This document shows, piece by piece, positions 8,438 through 15,653 of a stretch of 36,067 nt of DNA. The notes under the pieces are model-generated. The model saw only the letters and a list, made by a program, of their open reading frames with translations. It was not told the DNA's origin and searched no databases. Origin of the DNA: a virus (lineage: Duplodnaviria > Heunggongvirae > Uroviricota > Caudoviricetes); IMG/VR virus record IMGVR_UViG_2609460210_000005; one strand, written 5' to 3'. The position numbers and the translations under genes were made by a program. How positions within the stretch are numbered: position 1 is the stretch's first letter; each line of letters opens with the position of its first letter.

Positions 8438-11229
8438 TATCCGGGTCGCTTTCAGCGCCGTTGACAGGCTGACCCGGCCTGCCGAAAACGCCCGCCGCCT
8501 GATGGGGCAGTTTGGTGACTCCATCCAGCGAACGCAGGGGGCGATCAAAAATCTCGAGCGTCAGGCGCGTTCATTTGAGCGCGCCCGCGACGCTGTCAGT
8601 AAAGCGGATGCGGGTATCGTGAAAGCACGACGCCAGCTTAACGCCCTTAATCAGTTACAACGCACGGGTACAGTGCTCAGCGAAAAACAACAAAAGCTGA
8701 TGCAGCAGTTAAGCACCCGGCTTGAACGCCTGAATGAATCGCGCACACGGGAAATTCAGAAAATGCGGGAACTTGGCGGAGAGCTGAAACGCCACGGCAT
8801 TTCCCTGACAGGCAGCGATAACACCATCCAGCAGGCCATCAGACGCACCGAACAGTACAACAACCAGCTTGAACGCGAACGGCAGGCGCTTGCGCGTGTA
8901 ACGCGGGCGCGTGAGCGGTATTCGCGCGCGCAGGAAACCGCGGGAAAACTGAAAACAGGTGGTGCGCTGGCAATTGGTGCGGCAGCGGCGGGCGGCTATG
9001 CTGTCGGGCGNTTTTTTGCAGCCTGCGATCGGGTTCGGCAAAGAGATGTCCCGCGTTCAGGCACTGACGCGAATCGACAAAAACAGCCCGCAGTTTAAGG
9101 CGCTGCGTGAGCAGGCGTTAAAACTTGGCTCTGAAACACAGTTTACTGCGAGTGATGCCGCCAGTGGGCAGAGCTTTCTGGCAATGGCTGGTTTTACTCC
9201 GCAGGCCATTCAGGCCGCATTGCCCGGTGTTCTTAATATGGCGCTGGCAGGTGGCGTCGAACTCGGCGAGACGGCTGATATAGGCTCCAATATCCTCACA
9301 CAGTTCAACCTGACAGCCGATCAAATGGACCGGGTGGGTGATACGCTGACAGCAGCATTTACCCGGACCAATACTGATTTACGCGCGCTGGGCGAAACCA
9401 TGAAGTATACCGGTCCGGTTGCTGCAAAACTTGGTATCAGTCTTGAAGAAGCGGCGGCCATGGCCGGGATGCTTGCCAATAATGGTCTTCGCGGAAGCGA
9501 TGCTGGTACGGCCATGCGCGCAAGTCTGTCCCGCCTTGCATCACCGCCAAAAGCTGCGGCTGATGCACTGAAAGAGCTGGGGGTGTCAGTTGCTGACGCC
9601 AGAGGCAAAATGCGCCCGATGGAGGATGTGCTGCTTGATCTCTATAAGGCGACACAAAAATACGGACAGGTGGACCAGGTCTCCTTCTTTAAGGACATCG
9701 CCGGAGAAGAGGCGTTCGTTGGTTTGCAGACGCTTGTTGCGGCGGCTGGTTCAGGAGAACTGCAAAAACTGACCAGAGAATTGCAGGGGGCAAGGGGAGA
9801 GGCCGATCGCGTTGCAAAAGTAATGGCCGATAATCTTGATGGGGACCTGAAAAATCTCGACAGCGCATGGGAAGGTCTTCGTATTCGCATCAGTGATCTG
9901 GTTGACGGTCCGCTGCGTTCTGTCACGCAGTGGCTCACGCGGGTGCTTGAAAAAATCACCTCGCTGGCGCAGGCCCATCCGGTACTGACGCGCCAGCTAC
10001 TGATAGCAGGCGGTGCGTTGCTGGCAATGACAGCAACGATTGGCTCGTTGTCGCTGGTTATTGGGGGGCTTTACGGGAAGCTGGCCACCCTGCGTCTTGG
10101 TTTCGACATTCTTACCCGGTCAATGAATGTCATCAGGGTGTTGCCTGCGCTGTGGGGAATGGTGACGGGTTCTGTTTCTTTGCTGGGAGGCGCTATCGGG
10201 GCGTTGTTCAGTCCGGTTGGTCTTATCGTNGCTGCGCTTGCCGGAGCTGCCGTTCTTATCTGGAAATACTGGGATCCCATCANGGCATTTTTTGCCGGGG
10301 TGTTCAGCGGGATTATGGAAAGGCTGACCCCGTTGCGCGAAACCTTTGAACGGTTTGGTCCTGTTTTTGACGCAATCGGGAGCGGGATCAGCCAGGTGTT
10401 TAACTGGTTTAAATCGCTGCTGTCACCGATGGAGTCCAGCAAGGAAACGCTGGATAAATGTACCAGTGCTGGCGAGATATTCGGTAACGTTCTTGGCGGT
10501 GCGTTACAGCTTGTTCTGACACCTGCAAAAATGCTGCTGGATACGCTGGCGTGGATACTTGAAAAACTTGGCGTCCTTCCGGATGAAGCGGAAAGGGCGC
10601 GCAAGAAAATCGAAGACGCACAGCGTGCGGCCATTCTTCAGGACAAGGTTGCCTTGCTTCAGGGGGACCTGGCGAAAATCAATCCGCCGAAGCCTGTGGA
10701 AAATGGCAATGGCACCGGAGGTGATAACCCCAAAGACAATAAACCGCTCACAGACAGCAATACCGGTACGCTGCGCAGACTCAGCAAAATTGCTGATAAC
10801 ACAGGTAAGCTGGTTGATGAGACGAAAAAACGCATTGGCCCCGGCGATATTGTCTTTAAGAACCTGCCCCGCGCACTTGCTGTTCGTGGGGAGTGGCAGG
10901 AGCGGAAGATTGCGCAGGTCAGTAAGCCCCCCGCAATTAATATCACACCCGCGGTCCCGGCTCCGCTGCCTCCGGCGCTGGTCCCTGTTGTTGCGGCCAG
11001 CTCCCGCCCGGTGGCGGAGGCCATACGATCTCCAGTGGCATCAGTTCCTGTAACTTCCCGTAACCGGGAGCCTGTTGCCTCCGGATTTGGTGGTGAAATT
11101 CATGTTCATCTGCATAACGTTGTTACGCAGAATCCCCGCGAACTGGCGAAACTGGTCGGTGAAATGGTCAGGGCAGAAATGGAACGGCGCGCCCGTGCCG
11201 GGCGTGGCAGTTTTTACGATAAAGATTGA
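8415..11229 (+). CDS. T: Tail tape measure protein T; frame ambiguity at N 9011 splits it into two track ORFs
   Basis: Coiled-coil N-terminus, conserved LAMAGF...GVELGE...ALGETMKY region, Gly-rich hydrophobic middle, length about 937 aa. Confidence 0.8.
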
Positions 11230-11235
11230 GGAGTC

Positions 11236-11700
11236 ATGACCATGATGATGATCTACGGCATGTTTGTTTTTGAGCTGCGCACGCTGCCGCATCAGCAGAT
11301 CCAGCAGAGCAAAACATGGCGACATGTGAAAAATGAGCGCATTAACCGCTCTGCAGCCTGGCAGTATATCGGTGCAGGTGATGACCAGATCACGCTGTCC
11401 GGTTTGCTGTACCCGGAAATTACCGGCGGTGAGGTGTCGCTGACACTACTGAACACCCAGGCCTACACAGGATGTCCCTGGCCACTGATTGATGGCACGG
11501 GGCAGATTTACGGAATGTACGTGATTACGGGATTACAGACCACCCGCTCCGAACTGGATCGTTACGGAAAGGCAAAAAAGATTGAGTTCTCCATCAGCTT
11601 TCAGCGGTGTGATGAGGATATGAGGGAGAGGTTTCAGTCTGCTTCTGCGGGCGAATTACTGAACACGCTTAAAGACAAAATGGCGACAGCGGCATTCTGA
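11236..11700 (+). CDS. U: Tail protein U
   Basis: MMIYGMFVFELRTLP...WRH...AWPLIDGTGQIYGMYVI closely resembles P2 gpU. Confidence 0.85.
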   Translation: MTMMMIYGMFVFELRTLPHQQIQQSKTWRHVKNERINRSAAWQYIGAGDDQITLSGLLYPEITGGEVSLTLLNTQAYTGCPWPLIDGTGQIYGMYVITGLQTTRSELDRYGKAKKIEFSISFQRCDEDMRERFQSASAGELLNTLKDKMATAAF

Positions 11701-11708
11701 ATAAAAAA

Positions 11709-11733
11709 AGAGGGAGTGTAAAAAGCACTCCCT
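11709..11733 (-). terminator. Hairpin AGGGAGTG/CACTCCCT preceded by an A-run on the plus strand, so it reads as a rho-independent terminator for leftward transcription
   Basis: Read directly; T-tract follows the stem only on the minus strand. Confidence 0.5.
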
Positions 11734-11824
11734 TATGGCCTTCATGGAAAAGAAGCAAAATGTTGTCAATACATTCTGACTATATATAAATCGCCCGATG
11801 ATGGCAATGGTGATATTCGGGAAA

Positions 11825-11848
11825 TAAAAAAGCCCTCATAAAGAGGGC
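11825..11848 (-). terminator. Hairpin GCCCTC-ATAAA-GAGGGC with T-tract on the minus strand
   Basis: Read directly. Confidence 0.45.
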
Positions 11849-12011
11849 AACATGCATTGTGTGAAGATTTAATTTTTCTGGTTGCAGGGGGATTATATTG
11901 AACGGGAATCATTTAATGCAATATTTTTAATTGTTATCGTCATCAATGAAAATGTTTTTCATGATTTTATTGCTCTGATTACAATTCTGTTTGTTACTGT
12001 GTCTTTATGGC

Positions 12012-12037
12012 AAAAAAAAGCCCGCACGGGGCGGGCA
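12012..12037 (-). terminator. Hairpin GCCCGC-ACGG-GGCGGGC with an 8-T tract on the minus strand
   Basis: Read directly. Confidence 0.5.
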
Positions 12038-12365
12038 AAGAATGTTGGCATGTGTAGAACACTACGGGATTATAAATAATTTCTGCGTTCTGAAAAGTCC
12101 TCCCTTTTAAGGAGGAGAGATCATACCGGTGTATTGTAATAACCCTCATCAACTCACGGAAGTGAAAGTCAACAACTGAACTTATTTTATGTATACAATC
12201 CACGCCGCCAGTTTAATTCTGTTTTCATCTCTGATTATGAGTGGCGGTAATTTACACAGCCCAGAGTTTTAATGTTGCCCGCTTTTATGATCTTTAAGCA
12301 CACCATATTAATCGCCTGCATATTACATCTGGTGCCATTTAAATACTTCTGACGCTGGTTTGAAA

Positions 12366-12480
12366 ATCTGGAGTTTACCGTCTGCTTTCAGTGGCGTGAT
12401 GTGGGGGATGAATTTTAGTTTGTTTCTGCGGGCGAATTACTGAATACGATTAGAGACGAATGGTGAAGGCTGCATTCTGA
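12366..12480 (+). pseudogene. Degenerate duplicate of the 3' end of gene U (roughly 80 percent identical to 11585-11700 by eye), frame-disrupted
   Basis: Anchors GCTTTCAG-GTGATG and TTCTGCGGGCGAATTACTGAA-ACG and GCATTCTGA shared between the two copies, each followed by a hairpin terminator. Confidence 0.7.
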
Positions 12481-12482
12481 AC

Positions 12483-12511
12483 AAAAAAACAGGGGCAAAT
12501 CCCCCTGTTTC
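12483..12511 (-). terminator. Hairpin ACAGGGG-CAAAT-CCCCTGT with a 7-T tract on the minus strand; terminator of the leftward tail-fibre operon
   Basis: Read directly; paralogous to the hairpin at 11709-11733. Confidence 0.55.
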
Positions 12512-12519
12512 CTGCTACG

Positions 12520-12804
12520 TCATACGACCAGCCAGACCAGCAGACATGCCACCACCGGCACTGCAAAATCCATCAGACTTGCCATATCCCACGCTCGTGG
12601 GTCAAAACCGCCCCACCACGGCATATTCATACGCCTGCCATGCCCGAACATTTCAATCCAGCGATATTCTGCCTGGGTGTGTTCACGCGCAATGAAGAAC
12701 GTGCAACCGGCTATCGCTCCGTAAGCCCAGTTTCCGGTAAAAAGACCCACCAGAAACTGAGTGGCCACCGCACAAAGTGCATGGAACACCGGTGTTAAGT
12801 CCAT
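12520..12804 (-). CDS. Small three-helix membrane protein of unknown function, translationally coupled to the tail fibre gene (occupies the position of P2 G)
   Basis: 94-aa ORF with three hydrophobic segments and a Trp/Gly-rich loop; start overlaps the stop of H. Confidence 0.5.
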   Translation of the reverse strand: MDLTPVFHALCAVATQFLVGLFTGNWAYGAIAGCTFFIAREHTQAEYRWIEMFGHGRRMNMPWWGGFDPRAWDMASLMDFAVPVVACLLVWLVV

Positions 12805-12806
12805 AA

Positions 12807-15653
12807 TTATTCCTCCAGTAAATCAACACGGCGGGTAAGTGCGCTGATACTCTCTGTCAGCGCATCCACCTGGCTGACAACAGCACGCAGACACCACCAG
12901 AGAAGCTCCTCTTTCCGGAAGCGATAACGGCTTCCTGCTTCGGTTGCAGGACGAACAAGAACCCTTTCCGCCTGTCGGGTAAGCACACGGGTTGTCCCGC
13001 TCAACAGCTCCCCTTCATCCGAATAAATCGCTGGCTGAACCGGAATATCTTCATACTCTTCCGGTATATCTTCGTACTGTGCCTCCTCCGCTTCCCACGA
13101 ATCCAGACAAAATGCGCTGTATTTCCGCCAGTCCAGACCGTGTTTCTCCATCACGGCTATCGCGGCCTGGACTGTCGGCCCGGCGTGCAGACGCGCGTCC
13201 TCGCCCTCCTCCTCAATTCTCTGTAACCAGCGCCACACGCCCGGAAGCCGTGCTATTTCTGCAAATGCCGCGTTTTCGGCTGCCGTCGCATCGCGCGGTG
13301 TATCCTTTAACGTCGCATCCGACACAATGGTCGGCGAGTTGCAGAGATACACGCTCCGGAATGCTTTGTTGGGCGCACCCAGGTCGCTGGTATTGTTAAC
13401 CGATGGCCGGAATGCACCGTTAATATCTGTATCCATCTGCATGAATGCAGTGCCGTCACTACGGGCTGCAATTACATAAGCGTCAGCAGAATCGTCATAA
13501 ATACCCAGATTCCCGGCTGTTGATACCTGGAAAGCTCCCGCCTTCAGCGTGGTGCTGATGGCCATGCGCTTCTGGGTTTCGTCATCCGATTTAATATTCA
13601 CGCCCTGCAGGTATGCCACATTCCAGCGATTTGGCGATGACCCCAGATTCATTGCCTTGTCCTGGTCGGGATGAAATGACGGCGAGACCGGACTCAATAA
13701 TACAGACCAGGTTTCACTGCCATCGGTGCAATAAAGCCTTGTGCGTCCCGCCGACTGAGTATCGTTCATTGAGTAAAGGTTAATCCCGCCACCGCTCAAC
13801 AAATCCACGTCAGCGCGTATTTCCAGACAATCGTGCACGTCGTTCAGGCGGTGTTTCCACTGAACGAAGCGGCCTGTGTATTCTCCGGTTCGGAACGCAT
13901 CCCCGAACAAACGAAAAACAGCAGCAGAAGTGTCTGTATCCGGAGCCTCCTTTCTGACCTCAAATAACGGGCGATGCGAGCGCAGATTCTGCTCATAGGC
14001 TGCCACCTGGAAGTCTTCATTGGGTGACAGGGCTATATTTACAGCATTGGGACTCAGAAAAAGGCTGGCATGGCTATCAGGAAACGCCACGCCGGAGTCC
14101 ACCAGATAGCCTGTGCCGTCGTAAGCCTCCACGGAAACCACAGCTTTGCTGCGTTTTGTCGCCACACCACACGTATAAGACTTCGTGGCATCATATTTCG
14201 TTGCAGCCGCCGTTCCATATGCTGTAGGCGTCCAGTAAGATGGATTCACCGGGGAACGGCCAGAAAAATTTGTTGCACGTGCTGCAAAGTATGCCCCCTC
14301 AAAAGAAACCACATCGGCTGTCTGACACCAGAAATCCATATCGAGCAGATACAGTTTTCCGTTATGGAGAGCCAGCCCTTCGGCTTCCTGCAAAACGGGA
14401 TACCCCAGCTCTGCATTCCCCAGCATTTTCTGGCGACCATACCTGGCACGAACGCCATCCACATTGAACTGTCTGACAACTTCGCCCGTTGACAGGTTAT
14501 ATACAACAATGCGGTGAGTCAGAAATACGCCTGTATAACCGTAATAAGCAAAAAGATAATGACCATCGCTGGCCATCCCCTGAAATGCCTGCGACACCAT
14601 TGGCTGGGTGGACAGATAAATCCGGTGTTTAAACGTCAGAGAGGCGCGATCGAAAACATAAACTGTGCGGCGATCATCCCTGTTGTAATGAAGATGGACG
14701 GCCTCATCACCTGACTGAACAATTAACAGGCTTCCGTCTGCCGACAATGCCACCGTTATAATTTCATCCCCGGTAAAAAAGTCAGAGGTGAAAATCTCCG
14801 TACGGGTGACATCTGTCAGACTGGTGTCAGCCCCATTCCAGTTGATGATATTCACACCCTTGCCGTCAGCGGTCGGGGTATACAGCATCACGCGATCGTC
14901 TTCACATACAGCCCCGATACTCTGGTGACCAATATCAGCGAAAACGGGAGAAAACGAAATGACCGTCGGGTTTTCGTTTTCTCCGTCAGGGTTAAATATC
15001 GTTTCAACAATCCTTACGCCACCCGATACAGGCTGATGCAGAAACATTCGGGTTCCCTGCGGCGTATCACAGATACAGAACCCCTGGCTCATCTTATCCG
15101 CGCCGTCAAAAATCCCGGTGTAGTCAATATCGTGGACAACTTTATGCTGAAGAACCACATCATCAATGATGGCGCGGTGCAGGCCGGAGATGGCTTCGTT
15201 AACATATTCCTGTGTTGCGGCAATGACGCTGCTGTCCACTGACAGATTCACCGCGTTCATATCGCTGATGATGATGAACATGCGGCAGACCATTGAGCGC
15301 CCCGAACCTTCGGCGAGTAACGGCTTGTAGCTTTCTGCCATATTGGCGACGGCAATCAGGGTTCCGCTGTCGTCATACAACCCCAGCTCCCGCATCCAGA
15401 AGCCGCCAACTTCCGGAGGAATAACCAGTTCCGCAATCACCTGATTTGGCGCTTTGCTGTTCTGTGTAATTTTATTCAGCGTCCCGCGCCAGACTTCATT
15501 GTTCAGGGCGGTCTGTGAGGCCGATGGTTCCGGGAGATTTCCATTACCATCTCCCACGGCCATGTGAGTGATGTTCAGCTTCTGGCCTGTTGCTGTTGTG
15601 GCTGCAGCAAGCCTGGCAGCGCCAGCCGCTGTGATAATGGCACCATATTTCAT
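12807..15653 (-). CDS. H: Tail fibre protein H: P2 gpH-like N-terminal anchor, large divergent central domain, C-terminal intramolecular-chaperone-like (S74-type) segment
   Basis: N-terminus MKYGAIITAAGAARLAAA...ITHMAVGDGNG...AELVIPPEVGGFWMRELGLYDD matches gpH; C-terminus has SDATLKD followed by a conserved-looking tail. Confidence 0.8.
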   Translation of the reverse strand: MKYGAIITAAGAARLAAATTATGQKLNITHMAVGDGNGNLPEPSASQTALNNEVWRGTLNKITQNSKAPNQVIAELVIPPEVGGFWMRELGLYDDSGTLIAVANMAESYKPLLAEGSGRSMVCRMFIIISDMNAVNLSVDSSVIAATQEYVNEAISGLHRAIIDDVVLQHKVVHDIDYTGIFDGADKMSQGFCICDTPQGTRMFLHQPVSGGVRIVETIFNPDGENENPTVISFSPVFADIGHQSIGAVCEDDRVMLYTPTADGKGVNIINWNGADTSLTDVTRTEIFTSDFFTGDEIITVALSADGSLLIVQSGDEAVHLHYNRDDRRTVYVFDRASLTFKHRIYLSTQPMVSQAFQGMASDGHYLFAYYGYTGVFLTHRIVVYNLSTGEVVRQFNVDGVRARYGRQKMLGNAELGYPVLQEAEGLALHNGKLYLLDMDFWCQTADVVSFEGAYFAARATNFSGRSPVNPSYWTPTAYGTAAATKYDATKSYTCGVATKRSKAVVSVEAYDGTGYLVDSGVAFPDSHASLFLSPNAVNIALSPNEDFQVAAYEQNLRSHRPLFEVRKEAPDTDTSAAVFRLFGDAFRTGEYTGRFVQWKHRLNDVHDCLEIRADVDLLSGGGINLYSMNDTQSAGRTRLYCTDGSETWSVLLSPVSPSFHPDQDKAMNLGSSPNRWNVAYLQGVNIKSDDETQKRMAISTTLKAGAFQVSTAGNLGIYDDSADAYVIAARSDGTAFMQMDTDINGAFRPSVNNTSDLGAPNKAFRSVYLCNSPTIVSDATLKDTPRDATAAENAAFAEIARLPGVWRWLQRIEEEGEDARLHAGPTVQAAIAVMEKHGLDWRKYSAFCLDSWEAEEAQYEDIPEEYEDIPVQPAIYSDEGELLSGTTRVLTRQAERVLVRPATEAGSRYRFRKEELLWWCLRAVVSQVDALTESISALTRRVDLLEE

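Follow-up and report, generated by a model that had tools for sequence, protein, structure and literature searches.

A probable tail-fibre replacement scar between two convergent late operons of a P88-like Escherichia coli prophage

Introduction

What occupies the 0.8 kb between the tail gene U and the tail-fibre genes of a prophage in which no gene has been annotated there? The question arises in IMG/VR virus record IMGVR_UViG_2609460210_000005, the whole of which (36,067 nucleotides) is referred to below as the window. By gene order the window is a P88-like (Xuanwuvirus, Peduoviridae) E. coli prophage. Rightward genes for sheath, tube, E, E', tape measure T and U converge on leftward baseplate and fibre genes, and U (11236-11700, plus strand; Pfam Phage_P2_GpU, 9.5e-40; phrog_76; 'phage tail protein' in RefSeq) is the last gene of the sheath-tube-E-T-U operon. 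Between U and a convergent gene for a protein of 94 amino acids (12520-12804) RefSeq annotates zero features. The stretch 11236-12810 is 100% identical to the chromosomes of several E. coli strains, sequence type 131 (ST131) among them.

A reading made earlier from the letters of the DNA, here called the original prediction, had taken the whole segment for a moron, a unit of phage cargo, that is AT-rich, bounded by a diverged duplicate of the 3' end of U, and supplied with four leftward terminators but with no convincing open reading frame (ORF). The composition is as described, with a GC fraction of 0.33-0.42 over 11700-12500 against 0.50-0.62 on either side. As a single cargo unit, however, the segment does not hold together: its right ~40% consists of decayed resident genes, and only the left ~280-380 bp resembles an insert. 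We propose, with a probability of about 80%, that the segment is the scar of a tail-fibre cassette replacement, with the old and the new operon ends stacked where two late operons converge. Such a scar is ordinary, well-understood phage mosaicism.

Results and discussion

When 11701-12365 was used as a query, hundreds of E. coli genomes, P2 and SfMu matched it only at 12261-12352, and every one of these matches falls, on the minus strand, on the junction between the end of a tail-fibre gene and the start of a fibre-assembly gene. Alignment with P2 identifies 12322-12360 (minus strand) as a relic of the last ~40 nt of an H-type tail-fibre gene. It is followed at 12250-12321 by the 5' end of a G-type tail-fibre assembly gene (minus strand, 80% identity to the P2 and SfMu H/G junction), which starts with ATG at 12306, reads MVCLKIIKAGNIKT where P2 has MMHLKNIKAGNAKT, and is a pseudogene with a 1-nt deletion and a stop after 23 codons.

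The C-terminal ~50 codons of a tail fibre assembly gene, Tfa (Caudo_TAP), lie at 12083-12235 on the same strand and contain four in-frame stops. They were recognised with the intact Tfa of an IMG/VR contig, L011, which itself matches PF02413 (Caudo_TAP) at 3.5e-20 and phrog_136; in a tblastn comparison of this protein with 12095-12235, 25 of 49 residues were identical (E 1e-8), with the four stops in frame. A 70-residue fragment at the same position in TUM9803 matches PF02413 at 6e-8 and carries the RefSeq name 'tail fibre assembly protein'. The remnant has homology to the conserved C-terminal Tfa domain and the position expected of the family, 3' of a fibre gene and convergent on U, with the fibre 3' stub directly preceding the relic ATG. 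An intact frame of ~175-210 codons is missing, owing to the stops, the loss of ~330 bp and a 5' frameshift. The ~330 bp were deleted from the middle of the gene by comparison with SCU-172, whose longer copy is frameshifted too. As its reading frame is broken, the remnant is a pseudogene and no working member of the family. On these alignments, 12083-12360 is a dead Tfa gene together with a fibre stub.

The Tfa assignment also bears on a hairpin (TCCTCC/GGAGGA, 12098-12117) that had been read as sequestering an AGGAGG ribosome-binding motif. The hairpin exists, with a folding energy of -12 kcal/mol, but this is no better than in shuffled sequences (z -1.7), and it is restricted to the window and the EC0026B lineages, where it lies within the last codons of the Tfa pseudogene.

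The layouts of relatives show what the segment looks like when undamaged. L011 is 85% identical to the window over 11092-12235, and its order is U, a 380-bp spacer, an intact convergent Tfa and a 1055-residue fibre. The right ~40% of the segment is therefore found in a relative as part of an intact longer gene, which the original prediction had named among the observations that would tell against it. The homology between the window and L011 breaks off after 12235; it is picked up again at 15202, within the collar domain at the N-terminus of the fibre. In seven of the eight relatives of other genera that were tested, a Caudo_TAP gene converges on U, and the eighth has a resolvase-type invertase there; in such loci the gap between U and the next gene is mostly 40-150 bp, with a GC fraction of ~0.5. 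In P88 itself, whose U is 80% identical to that of the window across the first 393 nt, the U/fibre junction carries a DNA invertase and an invertible fibre segment, which bears out the expectation that this is a variable locus.

The point at which the relics of the old module meet the present fibre cassette is marked by a second copy of the end of U. The alignment of 11576-11714 to 12363-12494 falls into three ungapped segments, 76-83% identical, with indels of 6 bp and 1 bp between them. The copy (12363-12480, plus strand) represents the last ~39 codons of the gene and is dead: it has a 6-bp deletion, a CAG-to-TAG nonsense change and a frameshift from a 1-nt deletion, as read from the alignment of both copies. 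With the terminator that follows it, it fills 12363-12512. A frame-disrupted duplicate, ~78% identical, had thus been correctly noticed, as had its value as a boundary marker. It had also been claimed that a paralogous hairpin follows each copy. Hairpins do follow both, but all they have in common is TGAAyAAAAAAAsAGGG, which comprises the A-tract and the opening bases of the stem; since the stems differ, they are positional equivalents and not clear paralogues. L011 lacks the second copy, and four other E. coli prophages share this copy and the Tfa relic, placed at the same junction but beside a different fibre cassette.

In the window the cassette beyond this junction includes the 948-residue tail fibre at 12807-15653 (minus strand; Phage_tail_fib 3.6e-54, Peptidase_S74 1.9e-9). 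Its N-terminal P2-type collar domain is common to the relatives and its C-terminal part is foreign. The Peptidase_S74 (endosialidase-type) intramolecular chaperone occupies residues 778-840 and ~100 residues follow it. The last gene of the cassette is that for the 94-residue hydrophobic protein (12520-12804, minus strand; phrog_1443, function unknown, 1.9e-55). Many lambdoid coliphages (the Lambda_ev series, 2G7b, Tritos and PhiR11_1) have a gene that matches it at ~88-93% DNA identity, so this accessory gene moves between the fibre loci of myoviruses and siphoviruses.

The ends of the leftward units were located with a scan for terminator-like sites, defined as a GC-rich stem-loop directly before a U-run on the transcribed strand and compared with shuffled sequences. 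Ten sites were found in a 2.2-kb region, against 2.2 +/- 1.5 in shuffles. They include the four leftward terminators of the original prediction, here T1 to T4, as predicted minus-strand sites with stems of 5-8 bp, runs of T6-T8, folding energies of -12.7 to -16.4 kcal/mol and z-scores of -1.8 to -4.0; the scan placed them at 11733-11711, 11848-11832, 12036-12020 and 12505-12491. T4 (12484-12512; a hairpin then a T7 run, -16.4 kcal/mol, z -4.0) begins a few bases past the stop of the 94-residue gene and is the terminator that the present fibre operon is predicted to use. T3 (12012-12036; GCCCGC/GCGGGC then T8, stem invariant) sits ~50 nt beyond the Tfa stop in the window and likewise beyond the intact Tfa of L011, a position that identifies it as the predicted terminator of the ancestral fibre-Tfa operon. 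T2 (11826-11848; GCCCTC/GAGGGC then T6) has a stem that is invariant among all relatives and is 76% like T3 over a 25-nt stretch (repeat family D4). T1 (11703-11733; an 8-bp hairpin AGGGAGTG/CACTCCCT then T7, -16.2 kcal/mol, z -2.8) shows one compensatory G-C to C-G change of its stem in TUM9803 in the alignment of relatives. It is a good predicted terminator leftward; rightward the stem is followed only by TTATGG, which would make it a poor one for U.

The following history would account for these features. The ancestral layout would have been U, a spacer and convergent Tfa and fibre genes, an arrangement that L011 preserves and that is usual in other genera. A foreign cassette would have replaced the fibre from its collar domain outward, by one crossover in the conserved N-terminus of the fibre gene and, at the other end, an illegitimate join between the tail of a U gene and the old fibre gene, of which the last ~40 nt remain. 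The joined tail may have come with the U/fibre junction of the donor and its terminator T4. With a Peptidase_S74 chaperone built into the present fibre, the old Tfa would have become dispensable and free to decay, through an internal deletion, frameshifts and stops. Further cassette exchanges would have occurred later beside the same debris in sister lineages. T4 would now end the present fibre operon, while T3, T2 and T1 would stop leftward read-through before it ran antisense into U. The left 280-380 bp would be an older AT-rich insert of this E. coli lineage, with a 121-bp core probably under purifying selection, in which regulatory or small-RNA signals would be the likeliest content.

Several observations weigh against this account. 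No intact parent closer to the second U copy, and no donor with an intact U beside the 94-residue gene, was found in 5,426 E. coli genomes and 50,697 phage records. As no donor layout was found, the copy may have arisen by local duplication of the end of U. The Tfa relic joins a 5' end of the P2 G type to a 3' end like that of L011, a chimera whose direct ancestor is not among the sequences compared. The terminator function of T1 to T4 is a prediction, and none of them is a good terminator rightward, which leaves the end of the U operon unaccounted for; no canonical rightward intrinsic terminator was found after U in 11700-12520 (plus strand), where the T-runs of all four hairpins are on the minus strand. 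Finally, a replacement scar gives no account of why one block of the left spacer, 11755-11875, is better conserved than the synonymous sites of U.

This spacer (11701-12085, ~380 bp, GC fraction 0.33-0.40) is confined to E. coli in the collections searched. Searches with nhmmer and blastn found no homologue of it in 52 U-containing loci of other genera, and exact-pattern scans of GTDB genomes, IMG/VR and metagenomes found nothing outside the same four E. coli lineages. It is present in 72 of 5,426 complete E. coli genomes, in 0 phage records and in 0 plasmids. Since it is absent from the 52 loci and the gaps there are short, ~280 AT-rich bases are an addition peculiar to this E. coli lineage. 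A position between near-adjacent genes and a deviant composition, as in a moron, are found for ~11740-12010 only. The spacer has clear predicted terminators and two invariant -10 boxes; its promoter-like sites are not enriched over shuffles, and it contains no protein-coding gene of the kind that a moron carries.

Its conservation was examined among four lineages, all E. coli. The conserved non-coding block (121 bp, 11755-11875) contains T2, the promoter-like site B described below and an invariant TTAAATCTTCACACAATGCATGTT (minus strand). Mean pairwise divergence is 3.1% in the block, 18.6% in the adjoining 11876-12011, 6.3% in 12012-12085 and 14.4% at the third codon positions of U. Of 122 columns in the block 11 vary, compared with 48 of 152 at the U third positions (Fisher p=6e-6), and only one of the columns in 11761-11800 does so. 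Whichever two lineages are compared the block stays conserved, and this holds too for the EC0026B-type remnant, which differs from the window by 1.7% in the block and by 24% in the neighbouring AT-rich stretch. Within this fast-evolving stretch (11876-12011) lie most of a 65-codon plus-strand ORF (11882-12079) and, at 11897-11892 on the minus strand, an invariant TATAAT.

The conservation could be explained if the left spacer contained a functional small RNA (sRNA) or regulatory element, which we regard as possible but doubtful. In the fullest form of this explanation, to which we give the same tentative standing, 11700-12100 would be a cluster of one to three short leftward sRNA genes, each with its own sigma-70 promoter and intrinsic terminator, whose products would pair with host or phage mRNAs. 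It is compatible with a replacement scar in the right part of the segment. The clearest candidate, unit A, would be an RNA of ~60 nt that starts from TTGCAT-18-TATAAT (11921-11892, minus strand, found by eye), ends at T2 (11826) and exposes a single-stranded, almost invariant UUAAAUCUUCACACAAUGCAUGUU as its seed; the 24 nt upstream of T2 have one variable column, at their start (11873). Unit B (~70 nt) would run from site B, TTGCCA-17-TATAGT (11779-11807, minus strand; 10 of 12 matches in the scan), to T1. Unit C (~50 nt) would run from site C, TTTTCA-16-TATAAT (12069-12096, minus strand, from the scan), which coincides in part with the final codons and stop of the old Tfa, to T3. In favour of such units, the block is more conserved than the synonymous sites of U in every pair of lineages, the EC0026B remnant included, and the minus-strand TATAAT boxes at 11897-11892 and 12074-12069 are both invariant, the former within a stretch that is otherwise 41% variable. 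T1 and T2, lying downstream of the strong T3, would be superfluous for a plain operon end, and the spacer lacks a protein-coding signal. On the other hand, the promoter-like sites do not exceed the chance level (six against 3.1 +/- 1.5 in shuffles) and the candidate promoter of unit A fails the -35 criterion of the scan itself. Rfam gave no family for 11200-13000 at E up to 10, the best score (22.7 bits, E 0.31) being driven by a terminator. RNAalifold, applied to the stretch from T3 to T2, gave no conserved structure beyond T2, and its covariation term was unfavourable; with only four lineages, all E. coli, there is no real power to detect covariation. A search for structured RNA, which the original prediction had put forward as a check, therefore yielded the conserved stem of T2, the sole conserved structure within unit A, but neither covarying pairs nor an Rfam match. 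A P2 Ogr-type late promoter dyad (TGT-N12-ACA) was not seen by eye in the conserved block, and nothing relevant on sRNAs at this position in P2-like prophages was found in the literature. If the cluster is real, it would serve the lysogen, with host mRNAs or other phages, for instance, as its targets, and not virion assembly, since it is kept in decayed remnants. Units A and C were also compared as possible paralogues; the alignment was convincing for the terminator and TATAATCCC alone, and paralogy is not claimed.

The opposite explanation, that the whole segment is inert junk, is rather unlikely. It would attribute the low divergence of 11755-11875 to recent recombinational homogenisation or low mutability, and the extra hairpins to the ends of still earlier modules. 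The region is indeed a graveyard of gene fragments, T2 and T3 resemble each other (76% over 25 nt) as leftovers of similar operon ends might, and the element is found in just ~72 of the 5,426 E. coli genomes. Against this, the block has low divergence in all pairs of the four lineages, with both flanks several-fold more diverged each time, and as the pattern recurs in every pair a single recent transfer is an unlikely source of it. The compensatory change in the T1 stem also argues against inert DNA. A third explanation is very improbable, namely that the plus-strand ORF at 11882-12079 (65 codons, or 44 from an ATG in the L011 group) encodes a small hydrophobic membrane protein. Such a gene would be a moron in the true sense, or else code for a type I toxin, which unit C or A might oppose as an antisense RNA. 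The frame is open over 44-65 codons in six of seven relatives, despite ~20% divergence in AT-rich DNA, the predicted product has a hydrophobic core (...IFLIVIVI...ALITILFVTVSLW), and a plus-strand TTGTCA-16-TATAAA can be read in the most conserved 40 bp. The coding evidence points the other way. The ORF has no Shine-Dalgarno sequence, its start is TTG or ATG according to lineage, an A-run of varying length alters its C-terminal tail, and in EC0026B the ORF is broken. Owing to two compensating indels, the lineages do not all read its first 15 codons in the same frame. Substitutions by codon position number 12/8/11, with no third-position excess. The type I toxin-antitoxin pattern of a conserved hydrophobic ORF with translation signals and an antisense RNA is accordingly lacking.

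The 65-residue plus-strand and 69-residue minus-strand ORFs are present as first described, and the statement that neither is convincing stands, with no codon periodicity, conserved frame or start, or family match. Codon-position and synonymous/non-synonymous counts gave no coding signal in any of the six frames of the spacer. Nothing was found in Pfam, PHROGs or NCBIfam with all spacer ORFs of 25-65 residues; the best profile match, phrog_31727, was disregarded at E 0.031. In a database of 5.8 billion protein sequences the 65-residue ORF matched only three near-identical proteins from the same locus. A 10-codon ORF at 11946-11978 (plus strand, MKMFFMILLL) is open in six of seven relatives, with changes such as MKMFPVILLL and MKMFLVFLLL; it has no Shine-Dalgarno sequence and is probably a chance occurrence in T-rich DNA.

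Relation to known systems

P2, Mu, P1 and lambda-type phages exchange modules for tail fibres and their assembly horizontally, and H/G-type genes are a classical site of such mosaicism. The replacement proposed here resembles these exchanges in the putative crossover in the conserved N-terminal fibre domain, the replacement of the distal fibre and an accessory gene, the presence of P2/SfMu-type H/G junction sequence, and the sharing of the 94-residue gene with lambdoid phages. It differs in the debris kept in the window, where a dead Tfa, the 40-nt stub of a fibre 3' end and a defunct copy of the end of U can still be seen. The gene order is the same as in P88, a Xuanwuvirus (sheath, tube, E, E', T and U convergent on fibre genes); unlike P88, the window has no DNA invertase or invertible fibre segment, and its AT-rich spacer has no match in phage records.

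The left ~280 bp have parallels in morons as Hendrix defined them and in the variable, AT-rich Z/fun slot that P2 has between G and FI: they are AT-rich, lie between near-adjacent genes and are flanked by predicted terminators and promoter-like sites. The differences are that the spacer has no credible protein gene and that the right part of the segment is decayed resident genes. Prophages also encode Hfq-type small RNAs, such as DicF and the AgvB/AsxR RNAs of enterohaemorrhagic E. coli prophages. The candidate units resemble these in being short, in lying in AT-rich intergenic prophage DNA and in having a strong predicted terminator with a U-run, and one of them has a conserved unpaired stretch just upstream of its terminator. 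Unlike those RNAs, they have no Rfam match, and their candidate promoters are consensus-like sites only.

An unannotated 0.8-kb gap in the prophages of ST131 and other E. coli can thus be read, base by base, as probable debris of an old module and predicted terminators. It may serve as a worked example of a fibre-cassette swap in which a self-chaperoning (S74) fibre arrives and the resident assembly gene, made redundant, decays. It is also a caution that AT-rich, hairpin-rich gaps are not to be called cargo. The 121-bp block is a candidate sRNA or regulatory element in a clinically common lineage.

Further observations

The window contains 19 ambiguous bases, including 1202, 1225, 5033, 6653, 8168, 9011, 10230, 10283 and 19211, which give X in translations (for example in the tape-measure gene) and make nearby ORF calls unreliable.

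P2 has gpD after U; in the window, as in P88-like phages, a gpD/VgrG-like gene instead precedes the sheath gene and is divergent from it. Positions 1-446 of locus L001 (minus strand) place it at ~5236-5681 of the window, within a 413-residue minus-strand ORF at 4880-6121. As this gene does not follow U, U is the last gene of its operon here.

In the four sister prophages with a different cassette (L005, L006, L007 and L008), the hairpin after the second U copy is a different, long one (GCCACCACCTC...GAGGTGGTGGC). Their cassette contains genes of 97-98 and 92 codons and a fibre of ~593 residues, and several of these prophages have gpI annotated as a pseudogene.

Beside copA, strains of the EC0026B type have what is left of a prophage after heavy deletion (L004, which is NZ_OX460329 3457980-3464646; also L009 and L010). 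The order in this remnant is an ogr-like gene, U, the entire scar through T4, and then a portal gene.

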